Origin: Scyliorhinus canicula
Taxonomy: Eukaryota
Length of the DNA: 64,000 nt
NCBI RefSeq assembly: GCF_902713615.1
Contig: NC_052158.1
Span: 86,436,822 to 86,500,821, forward strand
Direction of reading: 5' to 3'
The position numbers and the translations under genes were made by a program. Below, piece by piece: positions 998 to 39,150 of the stretch. Positions within the stretch are counted from its first letter, which is position 1. Each line of letters begins with the position of its first letter. The notes under the pieces were generated by a model, which was not told where the DNA came from, did not search any database, and worked only from the letters and a program-made list of their open reading frames with translations.

Positions 998-1870
998 TGT
1001 TGCTAGGTGTTGCTTTTACTTAATTGCTCTGTTTAATAACCTTTGCTCTCGAGTCGCCAGGTATCTTTCTGATACCATCACGAGGTTCAAAGCCAAGTGC
1101 TGATCAATAACTCAATACACCAGTTAGTAAGTTTCAAACTAAAACACATTTATTATACACAGTCAATCACTACTTATGCATAAACTATACTTATTAAACT
1201 AACACTGCTACTAAAGGCCTATACTTAGCTTTCGAATGGCCCACCAGGTCAGAGGAACAATGGCCTTTGTCCGGTTCTGAATCTGCTGGCTTAAAGTTGG
1301 TATGGAATAGTAGCTAGGAGCGTCTATCTCGTAGCGAGTGTTGACTGGAGACTTACTTGGTTGGTGGAGCTGCTAGACAGGTCTCTCCTTGTTGAGAGTC
1401 ACGGTCAAGAGTTCTTTGAGAGCTGCCAAGACATCCTGCAAAGAGAGCGAACTGAACTTGGGGACTCTACTTTATAGTCCCCAGGGGTTTTGCGCCCTTG
1501 TGGGCGGGCCCCGGACCTGGTCCTAATTAATTGGACCATGTCCCAATCGTTTCAATCGATTTCTCCAATACTGGAGCTGTTCCCTGATCGCTGGGCGGTT
1601 CCTATGTGTCCGTTGGCCTTCCTTTGTCCTGGCTCCCGCTGGCGCTGGGGAGTCTGTCTTGGTCCCGATCGCTTCAATGTATCAAATTGTTCCTGGGGAT
1701 TGCTCATTAATATGTAGATGGCTATTGGTTTCAGTTTTGTCTGGGCTCTGCAAGTCTTAATACACAGGAAACCTTGCACCTGCTTGTTTTCCTGTGCCTG
1801 GCCAATTTTCCCTGTATTCTTTGCGGGCCTCCATATTGGAATCGGGAAGTGGCCACCCAAGGTGGCTACA
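998..1870 (-). repeat. 3' LTR of element A
   Basis: Direct repeat of 6007-6879; on the minus strand a TATA-like CTATAAAG at ~1469-1476 and AATAAA at ~1149-1154. Confidence 0.93.
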
Positions 1871-1880
1871 CTCCCTCCTT
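1871..1880 (-). promoter_or_regulatory. Polypurine tract of element A
   Basis: Minus strand AAGGAGGGAG directly before the TGTAGCC start of the 3' LTR. Confidence 0.85.
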
Positions 1881-2255
1881 GTGATCCTCAACGCGAAGCG
1901 TGAAGGATCACATTACTGCGGTGTCTTCATTCCCTGATCCAGTGAGCACTGCTCCTTGGCCTCTACACTGACCATAACTATGCAATAAAATTTTAACTAA
2001 CAACTCTAAGGGGCCGCTATGTCATAAAGGGACATGCATTACAAAACAAGAACTGGAACCTCTAACTATCCTCAATAAACTACTCTCACTTAAATCATTC
2101 AAACATACTAACTTCCTAACAGCACAAAAATAGCAGCATTCAAATTTTCCTCTGGTTTGGCAGTCAAACACAGAGTTTTACAATCCTTTGGTCACAAATG
2201 AACACATTTCTTTATTTACAAATGAAGGCGCACAAACAAAAATAAAAGTTCTTTA

Positions 2256-2951
2256 TTACATCTCAAGGGGTTCGGGGGCCTGGTGGAAACCGTAAATAGG
2301 GGATCTCATCCTGTATACCGGGGTGCGAGAGCGGTAGGCTCTCCTTCGCCATTTCTTCATGCTAATATTCTGCACGATGCTTGCCAATCAGAGTATTGCC
2401 AATGCTAGAAGTGCTTCGACAACATACGACAATAAACTTATCACACCATGTCGGGGTACTGTTGGTTGTTACTGGGCTCTGTGTACTATGGGGGAGTGAA
2501 CCATTGACAGCCGGTGGGGTGGATGTGAGGGGTTCGCGTTCGCGCGCAACCAAATACACAAGTGTCCAACAAAGAAAGATGGAGGTCGTCTTGGGGCAGC
2601 AGGGTAGCACGGTGGTTAGCATAAATGCTTCACAGCTCCAGGGTCCCAGGTTCGATTCCCGGCTGGGTCACTGTCTGTGTGGAGTCTGCACGTCCTCCCC
2701 GTGTGCGTGGGTTTCCTCCGGGTGCTCCGGTTTCCTCCCACAGTCCAAAGATGTGCGGGTTAGGTGGATTGGCCATGCTAAATTGCCCGTAGTGTCCTAA
2801 TAAAAGTAAGGTTAAGGGGGGGGTTGTTGGGTTACGGGTATAGGGTGGATACGTGGGTTTGAGTAGGGTGATCATGGCTCGGCACAACATTGAGGGCCGA
2901 AGGGCCTGTTCTGTGCAGTACTGTTCTATGTTCTATGTTTTATGTCTTCAT
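2256..2951 (-). pseudogene. Small transmembrane-protein ORF of element A (disrupted by a SINE, one frameshift and one stop)
   Basis: Removing the SINE and one TSD copy gives MKTTSIFLCWTLVYLVAREREPLTSTPPAVNGSLPHSTQSPVTTNSTPTWCDKFI/LSYVVEALLALAIL*LASIVQNISMKKWRRRAYRSRTPVYRMRSPIYGFHQAPEPLEM*; homologous to 20741-21111. Confidence 0.75.
2593..2943 (+). mobile_element. HE1-like tRNA-derived SINE inserted in element A
   Basis: tRNA head with A/B boxes (GGTTCGATTCCC), HE1/V-SINE core, (TTCTATG)n tail, TSD GTCTT at 2588-2592 and 2944-2948. Confidence 0.92.
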
Positions 2952-3724
2952 CTTCTCTTGTCCTGGAGCTTCTGGAATTCTGTGGATACAAGCATAATAT
3001 CTGTTATTATCTTGCCTAAGATCTCGTGTGCTAGTCTGTCTGTCCTTTGGTGCCAATTACCCTTTATAATTGGTCACCATCTGTGACTCCCTCATTTTTT
3101 TTTTTAAACCCAATTTCAGGACCAGACATACATAAAAATACTGAAACAGTGCGAGCTGTCTCGCAGCCTGTGCGATTTGCCATCCAACTGTTTGAGGATG
3201 TAAATAACATGAGGGGAAGCAACCGAAGGGTTACCTTAAAACAAAACAAAAACTTTTGAAACAAAAGAGCCAAAATGAGGTACGTATGGGCCGCGGCAGG
3301 TAAGAATTGGATGGAATCCCAAGGTAGGGCGGATTGTGCTCTACCCGAGCTTAGCTGACCAGAGGGGGGTCCTCAGACAGGGCGGGGATAAGTGCCGTGT
3401 CTCCACTGCCTGAGTAACCGGCAAGAACGGGCAAGAATGTAGTCATCGTGGTGGGTTGCAGTAATGTCTCTACCTTCAAATCGGAAGAGCAGTTATGAAT
3501 TGGGTGCTGGCAAGTTCTCAGCGGTTTCGGCTGATAAGCATGCCGTCAAGTTCTCATAGGTTTCTGCAGACAAATTTGGCCTGGGGCTGTGTAAGGCTGT
3601 TTAAAATTCAAACAAAGAACATTTGACAAACACAAACAAACATGCAACGAATATCGTGCAGGTTCCATCAGAAAGAAGGATACTGTAAATCACATGTGGT
3701 TTGGGGTGTAACTACCATATGGAG

Positions 3725-5682
3725 TCAGTGCAGTGTGACCAATGAAGAGAGGAAGGAGGAGAGAAACAAAATGAATTGGCATTGCTGAGGTGTCCCTGCC
3801 ATGAAAAGTGGTGTGTAAGCGCTCACAGTTTGCATGGGGCAGCTGGGACCTTGTAGTTGCTGTGGGTGGGGTTCTCTTTCATATCTGGGGGCGGGTCTAG
3901 CTGGTGGTGGAGGTCTCCTGCAATCTCGGGCGAAGTTTCCTGGCTGCCCACAAGTGTAACATGACATGGGGGACATAAGGTGGAGCAGGCACTCTGGTGC
4001 ATTGTTCCCTTGGGTATTATTCCCTGAGTGGGGGGTTGGGGCTGTTGGTGTCGTTGCTGGTTCGGGGGGCATTGGTGGGCTGATTCCGTGGCTGTTTCAG
4101 GGGGGCTTGACAGTCTCGTGCGTAATGTCCTAATTGGCCGCAATTATAACACCCCTGGCATTTGGTCTGCTGTGGGCTGTTCCTTCCCTCATTTACCCAT
4201 GCGGGATTTTAATGTGTTTTAACTGGATGCATATCTGCATCTGCCTGCTCTTCATCGGGTTTCCTAAAATTGGTCTTGTGTACTGATTTCTCCCAAGCGC
4301 GGGACAATCTTTTTAAAACCCATTTCTCATTGTGGGCCTCATCTGAGGGGTCATAATTTGCACAAGCTCTCTGACCTGCCTCTGTGGCGTGAGAGATCAG
4401 GATTCGAGTCTATTTTGCCATGTTATCTGGGGACAAATGGGCGCGGGCTAATTCTCCAAAAACTGCCGTGAAAGTAATCCATAAGCGTCCAGCAAACACT
4501 GTGGGGTGTTCAGTTTTCTTCTGCCTGCATCTATTCAGGCCTGCTACTGGGTCTCTATTGTAACCGATCGCATCTAGGATCGCTGTGCGCATCTCTGCTA
4601 GGGTGCCTCCTCCTACATTCTGTGGGTTGGGAAGGGCTGCTACAACGGAAGGGTCTAGGCTCAAAACTGTGAGCTTCACTTGCTCTTTCTCATCCAGGCC
4701 ATACATGGTGACCTGCTGCTTAACTTTTGCAAAGAATTGGTGGGGGTCTGAAGTGGGGAGGAATGGTGTGATTTTCTCACACGCATCCCGTAATTGGGTT
4801 ACGGTTGCGGTGGGTGGTTATTGGATTCATGGGGGTGTGATCTATCTGCTCTGTGGGGGGTTGGGGTGCTCTTCTCTTCTGGGGCTTCTCCTGCGTACAT
4901 GCTCCATGTACATACTTATGCGTTGTTTCATTTAACTCTTGCCAATCGGGTCGTTATCATCATTTAATTGGGATCCAAATGTGCTTTGGAATCCATTCTG
5001 GACTGAAAGCAGAGATTGCAGTTCTGCAATCTGCTTCCGGCACTTTGCATGATTTACCGAGCTCTGCCTCTGTTCCGTGGTGGAAGCATGGAGTGTTCAT
5101 AGAGCTGCCTTTAAATCGCTGCACTGCTTCTGCAATGCCTCTACCTGCTGTTTCGTTTCTTGTCTTACCAGGACTGCACGTTGTGTGTCCTGGATAGGCC
5201 TGGTCATATTAGGTTTGGAAGCTGCTTAAGTGCGCCAGACAAGACTGGTGTGCCCTCTTGGCATCATCCAACTCTCTGTCTTTTGCTGCCAACCTCCCTT
5301 TTAACTCTCTGTTCTCCTTCTCTATGTTGCTTACATCGACTTTACTCATCCTATTTCTCTCATCTATCTCTTTACGGAGCGTCCTAACGACCTCCTCTGT
5401 GCCTCGCAATTGTGCCAGACAGGACACGATTGCCATCGGCTTGCGAGCTTTTCCCAAGCTCTTCCTGTGAATCTCTGTCAGGTTCTCCCACCAAGTATGT
5501 CCTATACTCCCGGGACCTGTTTCTTCATTTGCACAAAATTCGCTCTAAAGGGGCCATCCCTTCCCTTTGAGGTACTTCCTAATCTCATCTTCCCAAACGG
5601 GACACTGTCCTACTCTGCTGCTGGTCGCTGCTACCACGAATTCTTGCGGGTTCATAAGGCGTTCCATTGCCTTCATTGCCAT
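3725..5682 (-). pseudogene. gag: gag of element A (frameshifted)
   Basis: Begins MAMKAMERLMNP..QCPVWEDEIRKYLKGKGW; coiled-coil segment; capsid-like MYGLDEKEQVKL..PQNVGGGTL..RQKKTEHP; CCHC knuckle CYTCGQPGNFARDC near 3920-3962. Confidence 0.85.
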
Positions 5683-5978
5683 TTTTCCTATCTGAGTTCT
5701 CTTTAAATTCGGAACAGGGGGTAATAAAGCGGTGCTGCAAATACGGGTATGGCTTTCGCTAATTTCCAGAATACAAACTCCCGACAGTTTTTCGCAACAG
5801 AATCTATCAGTTTTACCTTATAGCCCTGTTAGTACGCATGCATTAACACACTTCCGAATTCTGGAGGATTGATCAGAACGGCTTGAACACTTGTGGTTAT
5901 TTCTGTTCTCAATTGGATTCTAATTCAAATTTTGGGTTCTCTCGGAGTTGAGGGGGGGGGGGGGGGGGCACTTCTAAG

Positions 5979-6002
5979 TCGAGTCCCGTCAAAGTTCACC
6001 AA
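5979..6002 (-). promoter_or_regulatory. Degenerate primer-binding site of element A (tRNA-Arg-like)
   Basis: TGGTGAACTTTGACGGGACTCGAC 4 nt after the 5' LTR; aligns with the PBS of element B. Confidence 0.6.
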
Positions 6003-6006
6003 TAAA

Positions 6007-6879
6007 TGTTGCTAGGTGTTGTTTTTACTTAATTGCTCTGTTTAATAATCTTTGCTCTAGAGTTGCCACTTATATTTCTGATACCACCACGAGGTTCAAA
6101 GCCAAGTGCTGATCAATAACACAATACACCAGTTAGTAAGTTTCAAACCAAAACACATTTATTATACACACAGTCAATCACTACTCATGCATAAACTATA
6201 CTTATTAAGCTAACACTGCTACTGAAGGCTTATACTTAGCTTTCAAATGGCCCACCAGGTCAGAGGAACAATGGCCTTTGTCCGGTTATGAATCTGCTGG
6301 CTTCAAGCTGGTATGGAATAGTAGCTAGGAGCGTCTATCTCGTAGCGTGCGTTGACTGGAGACTTACTTGGTTGGTGCAACTGCTAGGCAGATCCCTCCT
6401 TGTTGAGAGTCACGGTCAAGAGTTCTTTGAGAGCTGCCAAGAGATCCTGCCAAGAGTGCGAACTGAACTTGGGGACTCTACTTTATAGCCCCCAGGGGTT
6501 TCGCGCTTTTGTGGGCGGACCCCGGACCTGGTCCTAATTAATTGGACCATGTCCCAATCGTTTCAATCGATTTCTCCAATACTGGAGCTGTTCCCTGATC
6601 GCTGGGCGGTTCCTATGTGTCCATTGGCCTTCTTTGTCCTGGCTCCCGCTGGCGCCGGGGAGTCTGTCTTGGTCCCAATCGCTTCAATGTATCTAATTGT
6701 TCCTGGGGATTGCTCATTAATATGCAGATGGCTATTGGTTTCGGTTCTGTCTGGGCTCTGCAAGTCTTAATACACAGGAAACCTTGCACCTGCTGTTTTC
6801 CTGTGCCTGGCAAATTTTCCCTGTATTCTTTGCGGGCCTACATTTTGGAATCGGGAAGTGGCCACCCCAGGTGGCTACA
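6007..6879 (-). repeat. 5' LTR of element A
   Basis: Direct repeat of 998-1870, followed on the minus strand by the PBS and gag. Confidence 0.93.
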
Positions 6880-7324: not shown

Positions 7325-8170
7325 CTAATTATTGAGTCAGTGCAACATACTGATCAATAATGCAGGAGTCATAGCAATGCAATGGTGAGCTATTTTAAAG
7401 CGTAGGAAATCTGCTGCATGGATTAGGAAAGGGAGAAATTCACACAATTTCATTTAGACATTCCCCTCTCCACTTTGAACCATGGGGTTTTTTTGTGAAT
7501 CCTTAATATAGACTAGCAGATAGCGTCTTTGTGGCCAAAGGGCACTTTGGAAGAAAAATGTAACACTATAACCTATATACGGATAAAATCTGTGATTCTG
7601 TAGGTACAGAGACCCACTTACTGAAGGCGTAGAATAAACCCCATGCTGTTATTCAATGTATTAGATAACAACACATTATTTCATTAGGCATAAGAGCACA
7701 TAGGGTCCCCCAAAATGTCATTCTTGAAGTTGTTTATTTTTCACTGATTGTAAGATACATATAATTTTGCTACACAGGGACTTAACCTACTTCAGAGCTG
7801 CAAATGCTTCTGATCCTCTTTGGAAAAAACAAACTTCTAAATGACAATATGAGTGACTACTCTTGGTGCCCACACTAAGTTTTGAAACAGTGGGATACTG
7901 ACAAAAATGAAATAAAGTAACAGAATTATGTTGGGATCTGTTGAGGCTCACCCTACTACCATCCAGAATATTCACACCCTGTGAGCAACACCACTATTAT
8001 AAAATGAATGTAGCAACATCCCAGCATTGATAGAATCATGGCTTTTGAATGGTAACGACATCTCCCTCACTAAAGCTTCTGCATCTCTCTATAAATGTCT
8101 TCACTCGCCTTGTTGACGATGCAGTTCACTTCCTGACCTAAAGGAAAAGAAAAATTTGCATTTGTATAAA

Positions 8171-9786
8171 CCCCAGCAGCCCACAACTCACTCACACCCA
8201 CCATCACAGCTTCCAAAGTCAGATCGGTCTTCCTGAAAGTGAACCCTCGGAAGACGACGGGCCCGGACGGGATCCCTGGTCGTGCACACAGAGCCTGCAC
8301 GGACCAGCTGGCACAGGTGTTCGTGGACATCTTTAACCTGTCCCTACTCCACTCCGAGGTCCCCACCTGCTTCAAGAAGACCACCATCATACCGGTGCCA
8401 AAGAAGAACCAGGCAACGTGCCTCAATGACTACCGTCCGGTGGCCCTGACTTCAGTCCTAATGAAGTGCTTAGAGAGGTTGATCATGAAGCACATCACGT
8501 CCATACTCCCAGAACGCCTTGATCCATTGCAATTCGCATACTGTCGCAACCGGTCCACAGCAGATGCCACTTTCCTGGCCCTATACTCATCCCTCGAGCA
8601 TCTCGACAAGGACTCCTACATCAGACTCCTATTTATTGACTACAGCTCCGCCTTCAACACCATAATCCCAGCCAAGCTCATATCAAAGCTCCAAAACCTA
8701 GGACTTGGCTCCCCACTCTGCAACTGGATCCTCGATTTTCTGACCAACAGACCACAATCAGTAAGAATGAACAACAACACCTCCTCCACAATAGTCCTCG
8801 ATACCGTGGCCCCGCAAGGCTGTGTACTTAGCCCCCTACTCTACTCCCTGTACACACACGACTGCGTGGCAAAACTTGGTTCCAACTCCATCTACAAGTT
8901 TGCTGACGATACGACCATAGTGGGATCTCTAATAACGACGAGACAGAATACAGGAGGGAGATAGAGAACCTAGTGGAGTGGTGCAGCAACAATAATCTCT
9001 CCCTCAATGCCAGCAAAACTAAAGAGCTGGTCATTGACTTCAAGGAGCAAAGTACTGTACACACCTCTGTCAGCATCAACAGTGCCGAGGTGGAGATGGT
9101 TAGCAGTTTCAAATTCCTAGGGGTGCACATCTCCAAAAATCTGTCCTGGCCCACCCATGTCAACACTATCACCAAGAAAGCACAACAGCACCTATACTTC
9201 CTCAGGAAACTAAGGAAATTCGGCATGTCCACATTAATTCTTATCAATTTTTACAGATGCACCATAGAAAGCATCTTATCTGGCTGCATCACGGCCTGGG
9301 ATGGCAAATGCTCGGCCCAGGACCGCAAGAAACTTCAGAGAGTCGTGAACTCCGCCCAGTCCATCACATGACCCTGCCTCCCATCCATTGACTCCATCTA
9401 CACCTCCCGCTGCCTGGGGAAAGCAGGCAGCATAATCGAAGATCCCTCCCACCTGGCTTGCTCACTGTTCCAACTTCTTCTATTGGGCAGGAGATACAGA
9501 AGTCTGAGAACACGCACAAACAGACTCAAAAACAGCTTCTTCCCCGCTGTTACCAGACTCTTAAATGACCCAGATATGGACTGACCTCATTAACACTACA
9601 CCTTGTATGCTTGATCTGATGCTGGTGCTTATGTAGTTACACTGTATACCTTGTGTTGCCCTATTATGTATTTTCTTTTATTCCCTTTTCTTTCCATGTA
9701 CTTAATGCTCTGTTGAGCTGCTCGCAGAAAACTCCTTTTCACTGTACCTCGGGACACGTGACAATAAACAAATCCAATCCAATCCA
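8171..9786 (+). mobile_element. 5'-truncated Rex1/Babar-type LINE (RT, frameshifted)
   Basis: ORFs 8239-8964 and 8973-9371 with [50 protein letters not shown]; AATAAA and (AATCC)n tail. Confidence 0.9.
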
Positions 9787-12783: not shown

Positions 12784-13544
12784 TGTAGTCATCTAAGATG
12801 GCCACCTGCAAAGGACCATGGGAATTATGGCCAACCCAGGACTCGGACAGATACAGAGCCGATATGTATCTGAAACACAAGTAACCAGGCCTGATCGAAA
12901 CCCCCGCTCGTTTGCATTTTAATGGTCCATTTTCCCAGGACAATAGAACTCAAATCAAGCAACCGGCACAGAGACAGACTGATTGGCACCATTCCCTTTA
13001 CTCAGAAAGCCCAACTGCCAATGACCGCTAAGGACCTGCGAGACACCAAGGCACTCACCTCTTTATTGGCCGAAATCGGACAGTGATCAGAGCCCTGTCA
13101 AACTGTTGGGTCCAAGGTAAAGGACCGCCCCAACGAGCGCAAAATCCCAGAGGGACAAAAGAGAGCACAGCCATGTGTTCTGTCTCTTTTGGATCCGGCC
13201 TGTGCCAGCCCAATTGCAGCAGGGACAGCCAGCCAGGTTCAAGACCAATGATCGCTACCTGATGGATGAGCAAAGCAGAGACAGAGCCACTTTCTTCGAA
13301 CCAGCCAAGTGAAATCCAGATAAAGGCCTTATCCATTTGCACAGTGCTGGTCACCCTGAAGTTAAGTATAGGTTATTGTAGCTGATAGGTGTAGTTTAAC
13401 TCATAGTAGACATTGTGGTTGCATGTTGAGATAACTCTTGTGTATGTGAATAAACCATCTTTTGAACTAACTAACTGGTTGTTTGGTCATTTGATTGATA
13501 TAAGGGAAGGCTTGTGGTTCACCAACATTATTAATAGAGCAACA
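12784..13544 (+). repeat. 5' LTR of element B
   Basis: Direct repeat of 21475-22237; AATAAA near 13449. Confidence 0.93.
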
Positions 13545-13548
13545 TTAT

Positions 13549-13566
13549 TGGCGACTCTGGTGGGAC
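13549..13566 (+). promoter_or_regulatory. Primer-binding site, tRNA-Arg(UCU)
   Basis: TGGCGACTCTGGTGGGAC is the reverse complement of GTCCCACCAGAGTCG-CCA, the 3' end of vertebrate tRNA-Arg(TCT) as I recall it. Confidence 0.85.
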
Positions 13567-13853
13567 TTGATTAGAAGTGACCTTATCACTCCAAGAGACC
13601 CCACAAACTTTGAATCCAATTGCGAGAAAGAGAAAGAAGCACAAGTCCCATATCGACCAAATAACCGAATTTTGGAAGTATGAACTAACCCCGCATGCGT
13701 ACCTAATAGGAAGGGTAAGGTAAACTTGTTAGAATTCTGTACAACTATCGAGGGGTTGTGAGTCAGAAAATAGCTTAAGCCATACCCATTGTTCAAATCG
13801 CCGCCTTATTCCCTTGTCCCAAATTAAAAGTAGAGAAAGAGATAAGAGAAGTA

Positions 13854-15592
13854 ATGGCCACTAAACAATGGAAAGATTGATGAATGCACGGGAACCCAAG
13901 GTCGCAGCGACCAACAGAGCAGAGCAATACCCCATATGGGAGGAAGAGTTAAGGAAATACTTAAAGGGGAAAGGATGGCTCCTTCGGTTGAATTTTCGCG
14001 CTAATGAGTCAGGTCCAGGAAAGATAGGACAGACTTGGTGGGAGAACCTAAGCGAGGTCCACAAGAAAAATGTAGGGAAAGTCAGAAAGACGATAGTGTC
14101 CTGGTTGGACAGTTGCAAGGCACAGAGGAGGTCGTGAAGATGCTCCGTAGGCAGTTAATTGAGAAGGAAGAAAAGAATGAGGGAAACAGTAACAAAAGTG
14201 AGAAAATAATTGAGCAACTCCGGGAACAGTTAGCAGCTAAGGATAAGGAAATAGCCGATGTAAAATGCGCACATCTATCTTGTCTAGTTCACATTAGAAG
14301 CTTCCAGACCCAGAACGATAAAGGCTACCAAGATACACAGTGTGCAGTCCTGCTAAGAGAGGAAACAGAACAACAGGTCGCCAAGCTAACTAGGAAATGC
14401 GCAGATTTAAAAGCAGCTTTGAGATCGCTCCACGGCTCCATTAAGGAACAGAGACAGAATACCGTTGACCATGGTAAATGCCGATAGAAGATAGAAAAGT
14501 TACAGTCATTACTCAGTGCAGAATGGCTTCAGGTACACTTTCGGGCAGGATTTAGACGAGGAAGATGCTCCCGATTGGCAAGAGTTAAACAAAAGCTCCC
14601 AAAGATACGTAGAGGACACGGGAAATCAAAATTGAGCCCCCCACGCCCCAAAAAGAAAAGCACCTGCAGCACTGACTGCACAGGCAGCACACACCCCCCT
14701 TACAATTCAATCCCCATGAATTCGGTTACCACACAACGCACGTCATCAGATCAAGAGGAGCCTGATATCATTTACACCACCCCACTATCCATAACCCAAT
14801 TAAGAGAGGCTTGCACGAAAATTGGTCCATTCCAGTCCACCGCAGACCCGCACAGCTTCTTTGAGGAGATGCGTCAACAGAAAGTTATGTATGGCCTAGA
14901 TTAGAGAGAGGAAGTAAAGCTAATAGTTATGAGCCTTAGCCAGTCTGTAGGGTCAGCTTTGCCAGAACCCCAAAATGTAGCAGGGGGAACCCTACAAGAC
15001 ATGAAAACAGCCATATTAGATGTCATTGGGTATAACAAAGGAGATCCAGTCAAGGGTTTAAATCACTGTAGGCAAAAGAAGGGGGAACATCCGACCACAT
15101 TTGCTGGTCTAGGGATTAATTTCATGGCAGTCTACGGACAATTGAACTGCGCACACCTAAATGAGGACACCACTAAATGGTCCCGCACCTCAGTCTCACA
15201 TGCCACAGACACAGGTCAAAAGGCTTGTGTAAACTACTACCCCACAGACCACAGACACAATGAAGTTTGGGCATTGAAACAATGTTCCAAAGCATGGGAA
15301 CAAACCCTAGACCAACAAACAGATCAGGACAAGATAGAAGCACCCAGTTAGGATTAGCCAGGACCCAGCATGGATAAATGAGGGTAGACACGAGGGACAG
15401 CACCCCAGAGCACAGGCACCATGAGGTTGTTAGAATTGTGGCCACATGGGACATTTACGCCCGCGATTGCCGACAAACCCCCCGAACCATCAACGATACC
15501 AACAACCGAACCCCCCACCCAGGAACATTGTTAGGCCCATGCATAATGTTCGCACCTGTTCCGACGACTTAGCATTTAATTCCCTAGATTGA
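13854..15592 (+). pseudogene. gag: gag of element B (frameshifted)
   Basis: ORF pieces 13868-14137, 14035-14487, 14575-14904, 14929-15351 align with element A gag; decayed knuckle C*NCGHMGH/ARDC near 15425-15470; ends in TGA-CGG. Confidence 0.85.
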
Positions 15593-18500
15593 CGGTGTTT
15601 GACTCCCCAACTTGGGTCTGTGACACACGCTGGGACAAATTAGGAAGACCAGTAGTTACAGGCACAGTCCAGATACACACAGTCGATTTTCTTTGGGACA
15701 AAGGAGGATCCCACACCACTTTAAACTCCTCCACCACGTTTCAACAGGACAAATGGCCCACCACAGACACCAACACCCTGAGTGGATTCAAGGGCACATA
15801 CAGCAAGGATATATCACAGCTCCCATACCATTCAGATAGGGATGATTAGAACCAAACACGCTGTTGTTTTAGTTGACTTACCCCAAACCACAGAGCACAT
15901 TTTAGGCATTGATTTTATGAGCTCCCATAACATTTCATTTGACCCAGTAAACAAATGTGTATCGCGAATGGCCAAAACAGCTAGGGCACCCGCTACGCTC
16001 ACAGTAGGGGATTATTAAAACAGGATTTGTTCAGTAGGGGACTATTGGTTTAATCCGCAAACAATTAGCGCAGACTAGACAATTAAAGAGGTCCTCATAA
16101 AACACAAAGCGTCCTGCGCACAACACAAAACACGACTGTGGGAAAATCCCAGGTGCAGTAAAGATTTCAGGTCCTGATCCAAAGCCGCAAAAGCAATACG
16201 GTTTCCCACAGCAAGCCGAGGGTGAGATTTCAATGGTTATTAATGGTTTGTTAGACCAAGGAGTTATACGACCTGTAGTGTCCACAAATAATGCCCCAAT
16301 TTGGCCCGTAAAAAAGCCCGATGGTTCATGGCGACTAACGATTGACTACCGAGAACTTAATAAGGTAACCCTGTTAGCAGCCCCCACTGTTGCCATGAGT
16401 CCAGAGACCATGCTCAAACAGGGAGTACAGGCAAAACATTTCACATTGCTGGACATCAGCAATGGCTTTTGGTCCATCCCGTTAGACAGGGCCTGCCAGT
16501 ATAAATTCGCATTTACGTTTCAAGGGCAGCAGGTCACGTGGACATGCCTCCCACAAGGATTCCATAACTCCCCTTCCATTTTCCACTGACAGTTGGCCAG
16601 AGGACTTTCTAAATTTTCCCGACCTGAATGCCTCATACAATATGTAGACGATCTGCTCTTGCAAACGGACACAAAAGAGGAACACCTAGAGCTCTTATCT
16701 GAATTACTAGGCCTACTGCGATCAATCGGACATCAGGTAAACCCCCAAAAGGCCCAGAATTTGAAGGAAAAGGTTCTTTATTTAGGCTATCATCACCCAC
16801 GGGAAGAGAGAAATTGAGCAAAAACAGATCGAGTCCATCGTTAAATTGCCCCAGCCCCAAAATGTCACTGCACTCCGGTCATTCCTAGGTTTGGTAGGAT
16901 ATTGCACAAATCATATAGATGGCTTTGCCACTAAAGCAGCCCCACTCTCAGAGCTCCTTAAAAAGAGCGCCCCATGGTTAATGGCTTCTGCAGTACACAG
17001 ACGCCATTGATGATTTAAAATGCGCTCTAGGCACAGCCCTGCTTTACAAGTTCCAGACCCAGGCTTGCCCTATACCATAGAAGTAGCAACCACCGACCGA
17101 ACCCTATCAGCAATACTCCTGCAAGAACAACACGATCACTTAGGACCCGTAGCCTTGCCTCAAGAGTATGAGACCCCGTACAGCAAGGATTCTCAGCCTG
17201 CAAACGGCACTTGCTTGCAGTACAGTACTTTGCGTACATCACAGGCCTCAACCTAGTAACGATCTTGACTGAGCACACCCCATGCAACTATTACTAGACG
17301 GTACATTAAAGGATGGTTCAGTCAGCCAAATCAGAGCAGCTCGCTGGACACTACTGTTACAAGGGACCCCACGAGTGCCAAATCATATGCAGGGACCCCA
17401 CATGAGTGCCAAATCATAGCAGCCCAACACCACGCAGGACCCTTTATCCCAAAATTACTACACCCATGAGCAGGCAATAAGACACAGGATTTCCAAACCA
17501 CAGGGAATGCTTTAAAAATGAGACGGTTCCTCCACAATCAAAAATGGAGTTAGAATTACTGGTTGTGAAATTTACGTGGAAAACACGCAGGGACGCCCAC
17601 TAGAAGAGATCTCTTTAAAATTGCCCGGCCACCTAGGTTCACAAGCAGCAGAACTCGCAGCCATAGCCTATGTAATTCAGCATCCCGACTCTTTTCCAAC
17701 TCCCACAGACATACACTCAGACAGCCTGTATGTGTGCAATAGTTTAACAGAATTTCTGCCCCTGTGGGAATCTCTTGGTTTTGTTTCAGCCGATGGAAAA
17801 CCCCTACCCTCTGCCCCGTTGTTAAAGGACATTCTCAAGAAAGCCTCAGACTGCACATACGGTATTATTAAAGTAAGAAGCCATCATTGCTCCTCCCCAC
17901 CTGGTAATGTAAAGGCAGAAGCCTTAGCCAAAGCAAGATCACGCCATGGTCACTTCTAGCAGCCACCCGAAAGCCAACCGATACAGGTTTCCCAGACCAA
18001 TATTGAGGATCTATCCCAAGCCCAAAAAGCAGACGACACCTTCAAACAGGTTTTAGACGGCAACTTCCCAGCCCCCTATGATAAATGGAAGGACGCACTG
18101 GCTGAACAGGATGACATAGTTTTAAAAAACGAAATTTATGTGGTCCCCACCCAGGACAGATACCAGCTCATTTACCAATTTCATAATGGACACTGACATC
18201 AGGGGACAGACAATACCATTGCCCATTTAAGACCATTGTGTTGGTGGCCTGATTTAAAAAGCAATGTAACCCATTATGTCGAGAATTGCCTTATCTGTGC
18301 TCAGAAACAATCCTGAACATTACTCAAAGAAAAGGGCAATTACGTCACACCCAACATGTGAATGGCGCTTGGACAAAATTTCCAAATCGATTACATTGGC
18401 CCCCTTGCCCCTTGCAGATATGGTTTCAAGTATGTGCTGGCTGTAATCAGCACCTTTACTAAATGGGTAAAAGCATTTCCCTCACGGACAAACACAGCAA

Positions 18501-19200
18501 AGGTCACTGCTGAGATTTTGACCCAACAGATATTCACACTCTGGGGTCTCCCCCACAGCATTGAGTCAGACCAAGGCTCCCAGTTCACCGGCAGAGTCAT
18601 GCAAAATGATTTAACAATTTTTGGGATCGGGCAGAAATTCCATATAGCATATCACCCCCAAACCAGCGGCATTGTTGAGAGAATGAATCGAACTTTAAAA
18701 GCGACCATTAGGAAGATGGTGCAACAGAACAATACCATGTGGGGCATGGTCTTCCCATTTGTTCTCATGTTTATTCGGAACACCCTTTCCAGTTCAACAG
18801 TTTTCACCCCCACGCTCTCATGACTGGATGGCCCATGAACGGTATTGAATATTTATTTGGCCTCGATTTGGCAAGCCCTACAGTAACCGTCCTCTCCCAC
18901 GAAAAAGCATCCAAAAGGTTACAGATGACATTAAAGTGGCACAACTCGCTGCAGCTGTCTGATTACGTTCTCGAAGGAAGCAGAGTAAAGAATGCTTTGA
19001 CAAAGCCATCCACCCCGTAGAGCACACAGTTGGTCAGCAAGTAATGGTTTCCCTTTACAATCCCAGTTCTTTCCTCTCCCCCAAACTTGCACGACCCTAC
19101 TTCATTTCAGATAAAGTGAGCCCCTCCGTGTACAAGATAATGTACCCCAACGGTAAAACTGGTTTGTTCCACATCAACCAACTCTAAGTCCATGGATCAT
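15593..19200 (+). pseudogene. pol: pro-pol of element B (protease, RT, tether, RNase H, integrase)
   Basis: FLWDKGGS (protease); QKQY..NNAPIWPVKKPDGSWRLTIDYRELNK, LDISNGFW, LPQGFHNSP, YVDDLL (RT); SQAAELAA..SDSLYV..KVRSH..GNVKAEALA (RNase H); FQIDYIGP, SDQG, VERMNRTLK (integrase DDE). Confidence 0.93.
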
Positions 19201-20740
19201 AATGTAGCCACTCCCACCACATCTCTCTGGCAATAAGAGATGATTACTCCCCGCCCATCAACAACCTAGTCCAACCCCTATGCCAACCCTCCCCCAGCCA
19301 TGCAGGCATTTATCCCTTGTCCATGCCCACAGACCCGAACTTGGCTCCACCCACAGGTACAGACTTTCACCTTGAACTTGACTCAGACGACAGCGAGAGC
19401 CTCATGGATTTGATTACTATCCCTGACCACTGGCGCGATCTCTCTGCCCCCAGTCACCCCAGCCCTCAGAACCACAACTTCGATATCTTTGACTCTCTAT
19501 ATGCCCTCCCCCAGCCACCGCCTGACCACAGTAACTTGCCCTCCACTCCCACCACCCCAACGCCTCACAACAAACAAGCCCCTCTTTGGCACCGCGACAA
19601 CTCTTGCAGACTAGTAAGGCACGGCGATTCGGATTATCCGACAGCCCACGCGGCCGAGGCACAGAAACAGCAGAAATTAGTCTGGCAATCGTGAGATGGT
19701 GGTGATTCAGATACTGACGCTCGTTTTGGTTAATGCTGTTACAACACTGTTTGGTACAGAACCCTGAGGTGTCCAGATGATGAGAAAGAGACACCGCCTA
19801 AGTATTAATGTGTCCTAGTTCTGATGGAGCCTGCCCGCCTTTTTCTTTTTTTTTCTACAACATGGTTTTAAGTCATGTCGCCCGACACACAGTTACTCTT
19901 CTGATTCGAGGGTAAGATACCCAATGTCAGTTAAAGGCACAATGTTGTGGGGAAACAGATCACTGTTCTCTCAGTCTTTATGACACATTTCCACACAACT
20001 ACAAACTCTTACCGTCCACCCAGGTAGGAAGTAACGGCACTGATCCCCACCCTACCCGAGGACTCCAAATGCATCCGGTCAGTTAAGCTCGGGTAGTGGA
20101 GTAACGGCACTATGCCCCGCCCTACCTGAGGATTCCACCCATTCTTATCCTGTAGCGGCCCACATGCACCTCATGTTCCCTTCACTTCATATGCTCTCGA
20201 ATTGTTCTCTACACTCTGCGTTGTATTTGGCAGGCCTTAGTTTCACCTTCTCAACTCTCCCTTTGGTTGTGGTATAAAGAATGCATTTTGCCACGGTTTG
20301 CACGCACATCCCTTCTTTCCTTTACCTTCCGCGACTCCCTGGTCGGTACCCACCTGCTATTTACACGTACGACAATTGGTTGTTACACACGCTGCTAAAC
20401 GCAAACTACCTCTGAACCCTGGGATGGAACTCTATAAAACTGGCAGCCCTGAAATCCGACTGGTTAAGATGAGCCTCAACCACCACTGGTTGCAAGTAAA
20501 GAAAAGACTGGTCGAAGAAATTGTCATACCACTCCCGCACCGACCACAAGCTGCGAGAGTTTCTGCACTTTAAAAATTTGCATTTCTTGTCTCTCAAAAT
20601 GGTATTTCAAAAAAAAATTTTTTAAATGAGGGAGTCACACATGGTGACAATCATAATGGGTAATTGGAGTAAGGACAGAAAGACTAATAAAACGAGATAT
20701 TAACCAAAGATAATAACAGATACTATGCTTGCATCCCCAG

Positions 20741-21111
20741 GATCACCTGGAAAACAGAAAACACAGGGTGAAGCAAGGACTGCTGACATGCGTTTGGATC
20801 ATTGCTGGAGTTCTGCAACTATGCACGCAACGGACCGTTATAACAAACCCCACACCAGCCCCGAACACTACCACACAACAGGCCACCACCAGCCCAGACA
20901 CTACACCACACAAAGACAGATATCGAAACCCCCACTTGGTGCGAAAGCATTGCCAAATGGAACCCCCTTTCATACAGAGTAGAGGCCCTTCTAGTAAGTG
21001 CAATAATCTGCAGTGTCATTCAGACACCGACTCCGTAAATGGCAAGCAAAAGCCTCCCGCTCCCCGACATATAAAGTCCGATTTCCCTTCTTTGGAATTC
21101 AACAAAATTAA
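20741..21111 (+). pseudogene. Small transmembrane-protein ORF of element B (two frameshifts)
   Basis: DHLENRKHRVKQGLLTCVWIIAGVLQLCTQRTVITNPTPAPNTTTQQATTSPDTTPH/KTDIETPTWCESIAKWNPLSYRVEALLVSAIICSVIQT/RLRKWQAKASRSPTYKVRFPFFGIQQN*; follows a splice acceptor at 20740. Confidence 0.75.
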
Positions 21112-21474
21112 ACTCATGTACCAATAGCGGCTAAAAATAAACCATGTACATCTTTAATTTTTGCTGCTGTTGTAAATTTTGTACTGTATATAAGTTCTTT
21201 GATATTCACCAGCAGCACGAGAGTAGCTCAGATAGTGTTAGCCAGAGATCCACTGTGTGGATAAATTAAATGTTTTATAGAGACCTGATTATAGTAACCG
21301 TTAGAGATGAATTGATTTATGGATGTTTTAATGGAATATTAGGTAAATGTCCCAAACCAGAAGATAGAGTAGAGTAGAACCTTGCCTTGACCAAAATTGA
21401 CCGAGCCACCAAGGATGAACAGGGATCGATAGTGTGATCCACCACGCTTTGCGTTCAGGATCAAAAGGACGGAA

Positions 21475-22237
21475 TGTAGCCATCTAAGATAGTCACCTGC
21501 AAAGGACCTTGGGAATTATGGCCAACCCAGGACTCAGATAGATACAGAGCTGATGTGTATCTGAGACACAGATAACCAGGCCTGATCAAAATCCCCGCTC
21601 GTTTGCATTTTAATGGCCCATTATCCAAGGACAATAGAACGCCAATCAAGCAATCAGCACAGCGACAGACTGATCGGCGCCACTTTTTTTACTCAGAAAG
21701 CCCAACTGCCAATGACCGCTAAGGACCTGCGAGACACCAAGGCACTCACCTCTTTATTGGCTGAAATCGAAGACAGTGATCAGAGCCCTGTCGAACTATT
21801 GAGTCCAAGGTTAAGGACCACTCCAAAGAGTGCAAAATCCCAGAGGGATAAAAGAGAGCACAGCCATGTGTTCTGTCTCTTTTGGATCCGGCCTGTGCCA
21901 ACCCAATTGCAGCAGGGACAGCCAGCCAGGTTCAAGACCAATGATCGCAACCTCACGGATGAGCCCAGCAGAGACAGAGCCATTTTCTTCAAACCAGCCA
22001 AGTGAAATCCAGATAAACGCCTTATCCATTTGCACAGTGCCGGTCACCCTGAAGTTAAGTATAGGTTATTGTAGCTGATAGGTGTAGCTTAACTTGAAGT
22101 AAACATTGTGTTTGCATGTTGAGATAACTCTTGTGTATGTAAATAAACCATCTTTTGAACTAACTAACTGGTTGTTTGGTAATTTGATCGATATAAGGGA
22201 AGGCTTGTGGTTCACCAACATTATTAATAGAGCAACA
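21475..22237 (+). repeat. 3' LTR of element B
   Basis: Direct repeat of 12784-13544, preceded by a purine-rich tract. Confidence 0.93.
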
Positions 22238-33924: not shown

Positions 33925-34990
33925 TTCAGATGGTGTATTTGATCTTCTCCAGATAGAGAAATTCCGACAGGTCTGCCAGCCAGTCCTCAGCTGTGAGTGG
34001 TGCTGCTGATCGCCAGCCGAGCAGGATTCTCCGGCGTGCGATCAGGGAAGCAAAAGCAAGGGCTTCAGCCCTCTTCCCCACATGAAGTTCTGGCTGGTCC
34101 GAAATTCCGAAGGCATTCTCGAGCACGGCTTCACCCTCAGCCCCACAACCTTGGACATCGCCTTGAAGAAGGTTGTCCCGAACCCGACAAGTCTGGGTCA
34201 GGCCCAGAACATCTGGGGTGGCTGGCCGGGCCTCCCTGGCACACTTCACACTTGTCCTCTAACTCCAGGAAGAACCAGTTCATTCGGGTTCTGGTTGGGT
34301 GCGCTCTGTGCACCATTTTGAACTGCATGAGGCTTAGTCTTGCGCAGAAGGAAGTGGAGTTGGCCCTGCTCAGTGCTTCACTCCAGAGTCCCCACCGTAC
34401 TTCCGTCCCTAGTTCACCCTCCTATTTCTGTCTTGCCCCATCTAGTGGTGTCCTTGCCCTTTCTAACAGTCGTCCGAAAATGTCCCACAGTTCCCCTTCT
34501 CCACAACATCCGCTTCCAGCAGTTCCTCCAACATTGTATCTCTCGGGGCCCTAGAGTACCTGGTCGTCTCCTTGCGGAGAAAGTTTTTGATTTGTAAATG
34601 ACGGAACTCCTGTCCGTTTGGTAACTCCAGTCTTTCCGTCAGCTCATCCAAGTTTTAACTCTGTCCCCCATGTAGAAGTCCCTAATCGCTAGCGTTCCCT
34701 GTCCTATCTCCACTTAATAGTGGTGTTTAGCCTGGCTGGTGGGAATTTGTGATACCGCAGATGGGGGCCATAGTAGACACCTCGGTTAAGCTGAAGTGCT
34801 CTCTCATCTGGTTCCAAGCTTTTAACATAGCTACCACCACGGGGCTGGTTGTGTATTTTGCAGAGGGAGGTGGGAACGCTGTGGTGGCTGGGGCTTGGAG
34901 GGTCGTACCTATACAGGACGACTTCTCCATCTTCACCCATTCCTTGCTCGGCTCCCTTACCCACCCCCTCACTCTCTTGAAAATATACTA
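33925..34990 (-). mobile_element. L1-clade LINE ORF2 3' fragment
   Basis: MQFKMVHRAH..DKCEVC (zinc-knuckle region) and ASLIARRRILLGW..YLEKIKY, typical of the fish L1 ORF2 C-terminus. Confidence 0.8.
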
Positions 34991-35027
34991 CTGATGTCTT
35001 CCTGTCATTTTTGACAGTTCTCAACCT

Positions 35028-38000
35028 TGTGGTGATCCACTGTGTTAACTGTGTGCACCTGTATTAGGGGATGTACAGTAGGACCTACACTACAGGTTCG
35101 CCGGTAGCCCCTGCCGGCTAGCTCCGCCCACAAGGAGCCATATAAATAGGTATGACTCTTCCTGATCAGCCATTTCGCCAGCTGCAGTAGGAGGCCACGC
35201 ATCTGACTGTAATAAATCCACAGTTGTACCAATCTGAGTCTTTCGTGCAATTGATAGTGCATCAATTTATTACAGTCAGATTTTCCACATTAAGGACATC
35301 AGGATCAAACCCGATCGCCTGCAGCTGGATCCACACTCGCCAGACGCCAGAAAGGACTTTATTCACTGGCTGGCTTGCTTTGAGGCCTATATCAATGCTG
35401 CGACCCCCGCTCCGACGGAAGCTCAGAAGATCCAAGTGCTTTACTCCAGATTGAGCTCCAGCGAGTTCCCGCTAATCCAGGACGCCCCGAATTACGCAGA
35501 GGCTATGGCTCTCCTTAAAGAGAACTACGTTCAGAAGACGAACACACTCTTTGCTAAGCACGTTCTCGCCACTCGCGTACAACTACCTGGTGAGTCGATC
35601 GAAGACTTCTGGCGGGCTCTTATCCCACTCGTACGGGACTGGGACTGTCAGGCCGTCACGGCCATGGAACATTCCAATCTCCTCATGCGAGACACATTCG
35701 TGACGGGGATTGCATCGGACCCCATCCAACAATGACTGCTGGAAGGGGCCACGCTCAACCTAGTGGAGACAAAAGCTTTAGCGCTCTCCATGATGGTCGC
35801 ATCTCGCAACGTCCAATCCTACCACGCTCGCCGCGCGGCCCACCCCTCCTACTCCTCTTGGACCCCGCAAATGACCCCCCCGGCAGGGGCCACTCCTGCT
35901 CAATATGCCTGCGCCGTCCGCCACACCATGCACCCTGGGGGTCCCCGCTGTTACTTCTGCGGCCAGCGGAAGCACCCCCGCCAGCACTGCCCAGCCCATG
36001 CCGCCACTTAGTGGTAAGAAGTGCTACTTTGCGGCAGTGTGCCAGGCACACGCAGTCGCCGCTATCGCGCCCGAATTCACTCACTTCCCCCAGCCGATCG
36101 CACAATGGACGCCGCCATCCTCTGCTCCCGGGGCCACGTGCGACCAGTGGGCGCCGCCATCTTCTACCCCCAGGTCCACGTGCGGCCCATGGGCGCCACC
36201 ATCTTGCCACGCCCCCACAAAGTGCACTCCATGGGCACCGCCATTTTGCCCCGCGCCCGCAATGTGCACTCAGTGGACGCCGCCATCTTTCTCTGCCCCT
36301 ACAACGTGCGCTGCGTGGGCGCCGCCATCTTCTCCTCCACAGGTCCTCCGGATGCCGCCATCGCCACTATTTGGTCTTCCCCACGGGACTGGAACGCTGG
36401 ATCCGGGTCGCCGACGCTCCACATCTGAATCCTCGGACGACCACCCGCTGCTTGTCTCTATGACACTGGACCAGTTCCGTCCTCACAACCTGGCCACCGG
36501 GAAATCAACGGCCACGCGACCTCTTGCCTACTGGACTCCGGGAGCACCGAAAGCTTCATCCACCCGGACACGGTAAGGCGCTGCTCCCTCACGGTCCACC
36601 CCGCCAACCAACGTATCTCCCTGGCCTCCGGATCACACTCTGTCCCGATCCGAGGGTTCTGTGTGGTCAATCTCACTATCCAAGGCATGGAATTCAGCAG
36701 TTTTCGCCTCTACGTTCTCCCCAACCTCTGTGCTGCACTATTGCTGGGTCTAGATTTTCAGTGTAATCTCCAGAGTCTCACCCTCAAATTTGGTGGGCCC
36801 CTACCCCCACCAACCGTTTGCGGCCTCACGACCCTCAAGGTTGGCCCCCCTACTTCTTTGCCAATCTAACTGCGGACTGCAATCCCGTTGCCACCAGGAG
36901 CAGACGGTACAGCCCCAGAGCAAGGCCTTCATCAGGTCCGAAGTCCGGCGGCTGTTTCAGGTGGTTATAATCGAGGCCAGCAATAGCCCCTGGAGAGCCC
37001 AAGTGGTAGTGGTTAAAACTGGGGAGGAACACAGGATGGTCGTGAACTACAGCCAGACCATCAATCAGTACACGCAGCTCAGCGCATACCCCCTCCCTCG
37101 CATATCTGATATGGTCAATCAGATTGCACAGTACCGGGTCTTCTCAACGATCGACTTTAAATCCGCCTACCACCAGCTCCGCATCCGTAAATCGGACCGT
37201 CCATACACTGCCTTCGAGGCGGACGGTCGCCAGCGCACAAGTAGACCAACTCCGGGCCCTGCATGACAGCCTTTGTCACCCGTGGGGTCACTCGATTATA
37301 CCACCTCGTCAAAGCCTGCAATCTGCCCTACTGCATCGAGGAAGTACGGACAGTCACCAGAGACTGCCAGGTCTGTGCGGAGTGCAAGCCGCACTTCTAC
37401 CGGCCGGACCGTGCATGCCTGGTGAAAGCCTCCCGCCCTTTTGAATGCCTCAGCTTGGATTTCAAAGGGCCCCTCCCCTCCACTGACCGCAACACATATA
37501 TCCTCAGTGTGGTCGATGAATTCTCCAGGTTCCCCTTTGCTATCCCATGCCCCGATATGACGTCCGCCACCATCATCAAGGCCCTCAACTCCAGCTTCGC
37601 TCTGTTCGGTTTCCCCAACTACATCCACAGCGACTGGGGATCCTCATTCATGAGCGATGAGCTGCGTCAGTTCCTGCTCAGCAAGGATATCGCCTCCAGC
37701 AGAATGATCAGCTACAACCCCCGGGGAAACGGGCAGGTAGAGAGGAGAACGGGACGGTTTGGAGGGCCGTCCAGCTGGCCCTACGGTCCAGAAACCTCCC
37801 AGCCGCTTGCTGGCAGCAGGTCCTCCCGGATGCACTGCACTCCATCCAGTCTCTACTGTGCACCACCACAAATAACACACCATGAAAGTGTTTTACCTTC
37901 CCTAGGAAGTCCACATCCGGGGTGTCGCTCCCGACTTGGCTGGCAGCTCCAGGACCGGTTCTTCTACGTAGGCATGTACGACTCCACAAGTCGGACCCCT

Positions 38001-38707
38001 TGGTGGACATGGTACGCCTACTCCACACCAACCCCCAGTATGCCTATGTGGAGTTCCCTGACGGCCGCCAGGATAGGGTCTCACTCAGGGACCTGGCTCC
38101 CTCAGGTTCCACTCACACACTTCCCCACCCACGCGCCACCCTCCCCTCCCCCGGCACTCCCAGCATTAGCCCCACCAGGTCCATCCCTCCTTCCCCTGCC
38201 CACGCTACAGGACGAGGAAGACTTCAGCACGCTCCCAGAGTCATCCAACTACTGGCCAACACCAACACCGCCAGCACCGACGTCGCAGACGCCAGCACCG
38301 ACTTCGCCACCGCCGCTACGTCACTCCCAGTGAACCGTCAAACCACCGGACATGCTTAACCTCTGACGGGCACTAGATGGACACATTTTCTTTCTCCCCT
38401 CCCCTCTGTAAATTACTCTGGTATAGTTCCACGCCACCCCCGCCGGACTCATTTTTAACAGGGCGTGAATGTGCTGATCCACTGTGTTAACTGTGTGCAC
38501 CTGTATTAGGGGATGTACAGTAGGACCCAACACTACAGGTTCGCCGGTAGCTCCTGCCAGCTAGCACCGCCCACAAGGAGCCGTATAAATAGGCATGACT
38601 CCTCCTGATCAGCCATTCTGCCAGCTGCAGTAGGAGGCCACGCATTTGACTGTAATAAAGCCACAGTTGTACCAATCGGAGTCTTTCGTGCAATTGATAG
38701 TGCATCA
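35028..38707 (+). mobile_element. Ty3/Gypsy (Mag-like) LTR retrotransposon, internally deleted
   Basis: LTRs 35028-35264 and 38470-38707; perfect 5-bp TSD AACCT; gag with Cys/His knuckles; protease LDSGSTES; RT start (SNSPWRAQV..IDFKSAYHQ) joined directly to integrase (H..LCH..CQVC, LDFKGP, HSDWG). Confidence 0.93.
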
Positions 38708-38879
38708 AACCTCTTAAAAACACATTTGCATTTGACGTTTCCAGAGGAAACCAATGCGGCATGAGTTTTCATTTAAAAATGTTAAAATGCAGATACTCCA
38801 GTTATTTTTAGAAATATGTGAAATGCCCACTCTAACAAATTTATTATGAGGAGTGTGATTCCTAACGAAAATCAAATGT

Positions 38880-39150
38880 CACTTTATTAAATCTTTATTT
38901 GTGTCACAAGTGGACTTACATTAACACTGCAATGAAGTACTGTGAAAATTCCCTCATTGCAACACTCCGGCACCTGTTCTGGTCCACTGAGGGAGAATTC
39001 AGAATGTCCAATTCAGCTAACAAGAAACTCACCTAACAAGAATGTCCAATTCACCTACCAAGAAAACTGCACTGACAGTGACCCAAGCCGGGAATCGAGC
39101 CCAGGTCCCTGGCGCTGTGAAGCAACAGTGTTAACCACTGTGCTATCTTG
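38880..39150 (-). mobile_element. HE1-related SINE
   Basis: Antisense tRNA head with a CTTGTGACA-type tail. Confidence 0.75.

Follow-up and report, generated by a model that had tools for sequence, protein, structure and literature searches.

A conserved, duplicated element downstream of pol in env-less, spuma-related endogenous retroviruses, predicted to fold as two tandem hairpins

Export elements have been described in mammalian and avian retroviruses. The CTE of the MPMV type binds NXF1 and replaces Rev/RRE; in MPMV it is built from a duplicated unit and also carries the NXF1-binding motif AAGACA. The ASLV DR has its own family in Rfam. Packaging signals made of double hairpins occur in gammaretroviruses, and CAS II lies in the 3' part of pol in foamy viruses, the hallmarks of which are a Gag without a Cys-His box, a Pol made from a separate spliced mRNA and the presence of env. 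AAGACA is the NXF1-binding loop motif of the gamma-CTE in the accessible part of PMC7551171. The DR affects export, stability and packaging, according to the available portions of PMC12193657, PMC11379458 and PMC1363727. For the small-spotted catshark, the excerpted text of PMC10699275 lists 293 ERV elements in which neither Gag nor Env domains were detected; further related work is found, in excerpt, in PMC5210030, PMC6001957, PMC7947760 and 10.1101/2024.03.25.586437. No export element in a fish or shark ERV was found in the literature searched, and no description of the present RNA element or of its neighbour ORF3 in that literature outside subscription papers, Repbase and bioRxiv supplements.

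Here we analyse a 64,000-nucleotide stretch of DNA (the window) with two proviruses, A and B, each of which carries a copy of such a candidate element (Table 1).

Table 1. Features of the element and its host proviruses; positions refer to the window unless a locus is named.
Feature	Position	Strand	Remarks
Element B, unit 1 (predicted hairpin 1)	20019..20064	+	stem arms flanking GGCAC loop motif
Element B, unit 2 (predicted hairpin 2)	20077..20134	+	4-bp base, 7-nt bulge, 9-bp stem
Element B, conserved 3' tail	20135..20172	+	third GCAC motif; no fold supported
Element A	3272..3419	-	unit 1 (3419-3368), unit 2 with shortened loop (3360-3315), 3' tail
Provirus B, whole span	12784-22237	+	LTRs 92% alike, gag-pol broken
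Provirus B, 5' LTR	12784..13544	+	92% identity to 3' LTR
Provirus B, primer-binding site (PBS)	13549..13566	+	
Provirus B, leader block	13700..13725	+	candidate splice donor GT at 13720
Provirus B, gag-pol	13856..19760	+	frames broken (RT, RNase H, integrase)
Second conserved block in B	20624..20740	+	ends in acceptor-like CAG (AG 20739-40)
ORF3 remnant in B	20760..21120 (approximate)	+	broken; small predicted single-pass membrane protein
Provirus B, 3' LTR	21475..22237	+	
Provirus A	998..6879	-	gag-only, pol-less derivative
Provirus A, LTRs	6879-6007 and 1870-998	-	94.5% identity between LTRs
Provirus A, leader block counterpart	near 5816	-	
Provirus A, gag/3' junction	near 3675	-	
Second conserved block in A	2980..3097	-	ends in acceptor-like CAG
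ORF3 remnant in A	2300..2960 (approximate)	-	broken; SINE-like insertion ~2938-2593
ORF3 copies elsewhere	L103:2466-2804; L171:7930-8271; L145:287-940	-; +; -	

The element and its proviral setting

The initial annotation had described a two-fold-symmetric element shared by A and B, and the motifs it quoted are all in place: the arms of B at 20021-27, 20052-64, 20077-96 and 20122-28, the loop motif AACGGCAC at 20033 and 20103, and the arms of A on the minus strand, starting at 3419, 3380, 3360 and 3327. The two copies align over 173 columns with 72% identity (E 6e-16) and their flanks do not align. The element is about 150 nt long and non-coding, and it starts 250-330 nt past the pol stop. Its description as a conserved, duplicated and structured ERV cis element, in the place expected of an export element (after pol and ahead of a conserved acceptor-like site), has stood up. 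Unit 1 of window copy B is without 10 nt carrying the 5' base of the stem. We take the PBS of provirus B to be of the tRNA-Arg type, and the insertion in the ORF3 of A is presumably a SINE. Elsewhere in the window, an L2-like RT lies at 8170-9370, and 34000-38900 is taken up by a third LTR element, which is rich in GC, has RT and integrase, and contains a 42-base tandem repeat at 36091-36373. A tandem array whose 45-base unit includes the LTR end and the PBS was seen at G000:C8:194858716-194859525.

The genome searched was a 4.2-Gb vertebrate assembly (G000), in which a 25-base pattern of the unit had 412 exact matches and its reversed control 0. Clustering of 146 copies by their flanks placed the element in about 10 lineages, nine labels being set by hand. 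The counts over 145 or 146 copies leave out six duplicates, four partial copies and L097, which fits lineage F; pair counts also leave out L063, which has three units. L063, L077 and L078 have three units or one unit, a sign of tandem repeat expansion and collapse. A scan of viral contigs for the element pattern gave 0 matches, and integrase relatives were absent from these contigs. Metagenomes yielded five distant integrase loci, the best two of which end about 500 nt past integrase and are without the motif, so that they allow no cross-species comparison. A word search of sequencing runs had no RNA run among the matches listed; a second organism shared 16-18% of the words.

Between-lineage identity in 16 copies (90 pairs) was 0.67 in the element, with a peak of 0.73, compared with 0.24-0.42 in windows over the 180 nt upstream and 0.11-0.16 over the 120 nt downstream. 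Conservation no higher than that of neighbouring non-coding DNA had been named beforehand as the outcome that would count against the element, and this outcome did not occur. The best integrase windows reached 0.71-0.73, the peak of the element equalling the integrase C-terminus, and one other conserved 60-nt window (20321-20380) had an identity of 0.64.

Because the first 60 copies had been chosen by their likeness to the element, three sampling routes independent of it were added, based on the PBS (40 loci), on RT and on the gag-only junction of A. The element was carried by 15 of the 40 PBS-selected loci, many of the remainder being truncated. Among the 14 two-LTR copies selected in this way, 9 had the element, 1 had part of it and 4 were without it; the one element-less junction examined was a singleton, spanned by 1 of 40 scored matches. 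Nine divergent PBS-selected loci were 74-78% identical to B in the element and 65-73% in gag-pol. All 12 RT-selected copies fetched from the 121 matches listed contained it. The gag-only junction of A was spanned by 40 of 40 listed matches, and 28 of the 30 copies fetched through it kept the element; the other two have a break within it and have lost the entire 3' end. ORF3 was retained in 25 of these 30. Retention is not peculiar to the element, since gag-only copies preserve the 3' cassette in full. The copies of this amplified subfamily (L203-L232; window 3675 (-)) combine one 5' half with 3' cassettes from several lineages, which suggests that templates were switched repeatedly at a point immediately 5' of the element.

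Downstream, the second conserved block was present in 137 of 146 copies and ended in YAG in 113 of these 137. The YAG alternates between CAG and TAG by lineage, and the sequence just 3' of it diverges, as at a 3' splice site; the spacer from the element to this acceptor is about 300-570 nt and is not conserved. Two short inverted repeats were observed at the start of the block (window 20640-20665 (+) and 3085-3050 (-)). The leader block (window 5845-5810 (-) and 13695-13725 (+)), conserved across lineages, contains TGCATG and, after it, a perfect branch-point heptamer, an AG and the candidate donor; among these are sites that we take to be of the RBFOX/QKI type. The candidate donor GT was lost in three young copies, L171 and L173 among them.

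Three raw RNA runs gave no GT..AG joint on B, at low depth, and none on a young copy, at an acceptor depth of about 23-80. Two guessed spliced junctions had 0 genomic matches, a weak test. In two oligo-dT runs pol and the element were covered by sense reads, assuming the usual library stranding. A peak of RNA depth at the element of the young copy (about 150, compared with 30 over pol) was set aside as a possible artefact because a downstream A-run can prime oligo-dT and reads of other lineages map there. The order of these sequence features suggests that the element may lie within an intron, in which case only unspliced RNA would carry it.

Predicted folds: two tandem hairpins and the rod

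A duplicated hairpin can pair locally or as one rod, so that sequence variation must decide between the two. In a covariation set of 60 copies, with up to 7 per lineage, the two-hairpin model had 92.6% paired cells and 22 double-change cells, which 4 of 500 shuffles equalled or exceeded, although 5-25% of unconstrained alignments score this high. The rod model had 88.4% paired cells and 5 double-change cells, and its covariation did not rise above shuffles, 312 of 500 being as high. At two positions of the rod outer stem, 48 and 41 of the cells from the 60 copies were unpaired; this stem has an A·C mismatch in every main lineage, and 8 of 11 show a second. At the level of lineages, the hairpins gave 203 Watson-Crick, 28 G·U and 2 A·C combinations among 234 pairs, and the rod 172, 44 and 17, respectively. 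On the sense strand G·U outnumbered A·C (7 positions versus 1), an excess that points to RNA.

Few changes are informative: near the apex of hairpin 1, C-G versus U-A separates B and E from the remaining lineages; at the base of this hairpin, C, A and Y show C-G, U·G and U-A; and A-U in unit 1 stands against G-C at the equivalent position of unit 2. Compensatory double changes at the lineage level number two in hairpin 1 and none in hairpin 2, and the pairs with double changes in the two-hairpin model are fewer than in shuffles (3 versus 5.5). A stepwise path from C-G through U·G to U-A in hairpin 1 was rejected: it rests on 2-3 copies, and C-G is present in 7 of the 8 F copies that matched the search pattern, 7 of 15 not matching it. 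An apical GGC/GCC helix and a small tail hairpin were likewise discarded; both fit the columns, but their pair probability was at most 0.2 in the main lineages.

Then, what became of the rod in individual copies? Constrained folding gave the hairpins the lower energy in 87 of 91 copies outside lineages B, E and F; within B/E/F the rod was lower in 39 of 54 and the hairpins in 15 of 54. In the young lineage the rod was 21 kcal/mol worse (median). Folding z-scores were mostly -2.2 to +1.6. Window copy B, an atypical case, does fold as a rod (z -1.8, with 11 of 200 shuffles doing equally well; inner-stem pair probability 0.99), and it has one rod-favouring difference per 3' arm versus most B copies. 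Copy A does not fold in this way (z -0.27, rod probability 0). The RNAalifold check proposed for the rod returned a weak mixed fold (-4.5 kcal/mol, from decayed copies) that includes part of the rod inner stem. The symmetric rod therefore holds for copy B and is feasible in lineages B, E and F, but it is not the shared fold across 145 copies. The inner stem is indeed preserved through G·U pairs, as had been claimed, with 94.6% of it paired; the rod itself fails in copy A.

Taken together, the model comparison makes it likely that the shared fold is two tandem hairpins on the sense RNA, and gives modest structural support for a conserved RNA element. Each unit would form a 13-bp stem, interrupted by one bulge, from its 5' and 3' arms, and its loop would present GGCAC or GCAC. 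The commonest letters of GGCAC in loop 1 are identical in 8 of 8 lineages, and GCAC is retained despite the deletions in the unit-2 loop of A and Y. This constancy and survival suggest a protein-binding site.

Candidate roles of the element

By analogy with the CTE, DR and RTE elements, we consider the element a candidate export or post-transcriptional signal for unspliced viral RNA, with a probability of roughly 0.5. The tandem hairpins would recruit a host protein, by which the intron-retaining genomic RNA would leave the nucleus and be used; the acceptor-like YAG would serve a spliced ORF3 mRNA, so that unspliced RNA alone would retain the element. As no Rev-like ORF turned up, export would depend on a host factor. 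As pol-less copies retain the entire cassette, packaging and control of ORF3 are kept as rival explanations.

It is possible, but on balance unlikely, that the hairpins are a packaging or dimerisation signal, either bound by Gag or pairing between two genomes; conversion from hairpin to duplex would then be the intermolecular form of the rod. The amplified pol-less copies keep the element (28/30), the joining of one gag-only 5' half to the 3' halves of several lineages implies co-packaging, and the 3' arm of unit 2 contains a self-complementary run. The ASLV DR likewise affects packaging, as the available text of PMC12193657 has it. However, the leader, which is the usual site of a packaging signal, is also conserved, A and Y carry a deletion of the unit-2 loop, and there is no invariant self-complementary loop.

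We regard as rather doubtful a role in regulating splicing at the downstream acceptor or in permitting translation of ORF3 from unspliced RNA, as for sORF2 of Drosophila. The element is always inherited together with the second block and ORF3, spliced reads were not seen, and the sORFs of MDG1 sit on unspliced RNA in the accessible part of 10.1101/2025.03.14.642691. This explanation would not predict an unconserved spacer of such variable length, nor the unconserved upstream ATGs that precede ORF3. That the symmetric rod is the working, CTE-like fold is improbable: the majority of B/E/F copies and window copy B favour it and its G·U-paired inner stem appears in part in the RNAalifold fold, but the outer-stem A·C mismatches, the covariation and the energy cost in the young lineage all oppose it. 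A DNA-level enhancer with a YAACGG core, which we take to be a MYB-like site, or a slowly evolving relic under no structural constraint, is very improbable despite the weak folding z-scores and the presence of the core in unit 1 of several lineages, for A and Y have a changed core, unit 2 of A, Y and C has none, the excess of G·U is strand-specific, and the element is as conserved as coding DNA.

Comparison with described retroviruses and export elements

In a comparison among solved structures, the RT of the clade matched foamy viruses best (E 3e-35, versus 5e-18 for MLV), and the named database relatives nearest to Pol were Pol proteins of frog and coelacanth. A tree of the RT region, not of integrase, joined the genome's own copies and one unnamed protein in a single clade (SH-aLRT 100). 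Young relatives have open gag and pol linked via an in-frame TGA and encode a Gag CCHC knuckle and a tether plus RNase H; an env-sized ORF was absent from 12 of 12 RT-selected loci. On these sequence characters the clade is a spuma-related, env-less class III ERV. Identity with foamy viruses is ruled out by the CCHC in Gag, the in-frame TGA and the lack of an env-sized ORF. Lokiretroviruses were ruled out by eye, as the RT reads CLPQGFHNSP and env is absent; Loki RTs read CPFGYSNSP-type in the excerpts available, and a motif search of the accessible part of the lokiretrovirus supplement gave two unrelated matches and nothing else.

With XtERV-S and the catshark ERV-Spuma, as described in the available part of PMC10699275, the clade shares a foamy-like RT and a tether plus RNase H, and with XtERV-S, in the excerpt of PMC8278194, gag and pol separated by an in-frame TGA. 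In contrast to XtERV-S and to foamy viruses, which are without CCHC knuckles, its Gag has CCHC; unlike class III spuma-related ERVs it is without env and has the small ORF3. It may be among the 293 catshark elements of PMC10699275. The young lineage (L171-L182) has LTR identities up to 99.9% and sense RNA reads, and 7 of its 12 loci have a pol frame of 1383-1419 aa; the clade seems to have been recently active without env.

An ORF3 match was found in 121 of 146 copies and in all main lineages. Judged by eye, it runs from a signal peptide through a T/P-rich stalk and a transmembrane segment to a basic run and a short tail. In several lineages its length is 113-117 aa; in lineage E it reaches about 220 aa and has an extra, cysteine-rich ectodomain. 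Pfam gave no family above cut-off, the Atlas no usable match, and the single database relative is labelled Scyliorhinus canicula, which makes a catshark the likely host. As in the sORF2/FAST-like proteins of Drosophila MDG1 (10.1101/2025.03.14.642691, accessible part), a small ORF in an env-less element encodes a hydrophobic segment and, behind it, a polybasic run. Unlike them, ORF3 has a signal-peptide-like start by eye in place of a myristoylation motif, spans 113-220 aa and lies behind an acceptor-like site; no MG start was seen in the ORFs printed, and no sequence similarity to those proteins was found. ORF3 is possibly more interesting than the RNA element, because it makes one ask how a vertebrate retrovirus can go on spreading without env. 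A speculative and rather unlikely answer would be that the young clade swapped env for a 3' cassette, consisting of an export double-hairpin (rod-switchable in one lineage), a regulated acceptor and an ORF3 that moves particles between cells as sORF2/FAST does in flies. If this were true, the export element would have no precedent in a fish or spuma-related ERV, nor the env-independent infectivity module in any vertebrate ERV.

A relationship to the MPMV CTE was not supported: the AAGACA motif was found in 1 of 146 copies, and no Rfam family matched. An Infernal-type search of Rfam had 0 matches at E<=1 over window positions 1-24000, and five other copies gave a sub-threshold LTR match only. 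Our analysis indicates that the cis element is real and conserved, and probably of a functional kind already known; its fold is revised from rod to two hairpins, and an export role is proposed by analogy. The roughly 10 natural lineage variants, some hairpin-only and some able to adopt either fold, make both fold and function testable with natural sequences. Like the MPMV/SRV CTE in the available text of PMC7551171, it is structured, about 150-175 nt long, and 3' and non-coding in a simple retrovirus. The CTE differs in being a single long stem-loop with two internal loops, whereas covariation here favours two hairpins and an extended rod with two symmetric internal loops is feasible only in lineages B, E and F; the CTE also lies behind env, and the element between pol and the acceptor-like site. 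It is distinguished from the DR by the absence of an Rfam match. With the ASLV DR, the IAP RTE and the MusD MTE, as presented in the accessible portions of PMC12193657, PMC11379458 and PMC1363727, it would share the character of a post-transcriptional cis element of simple or env-less retroelements.
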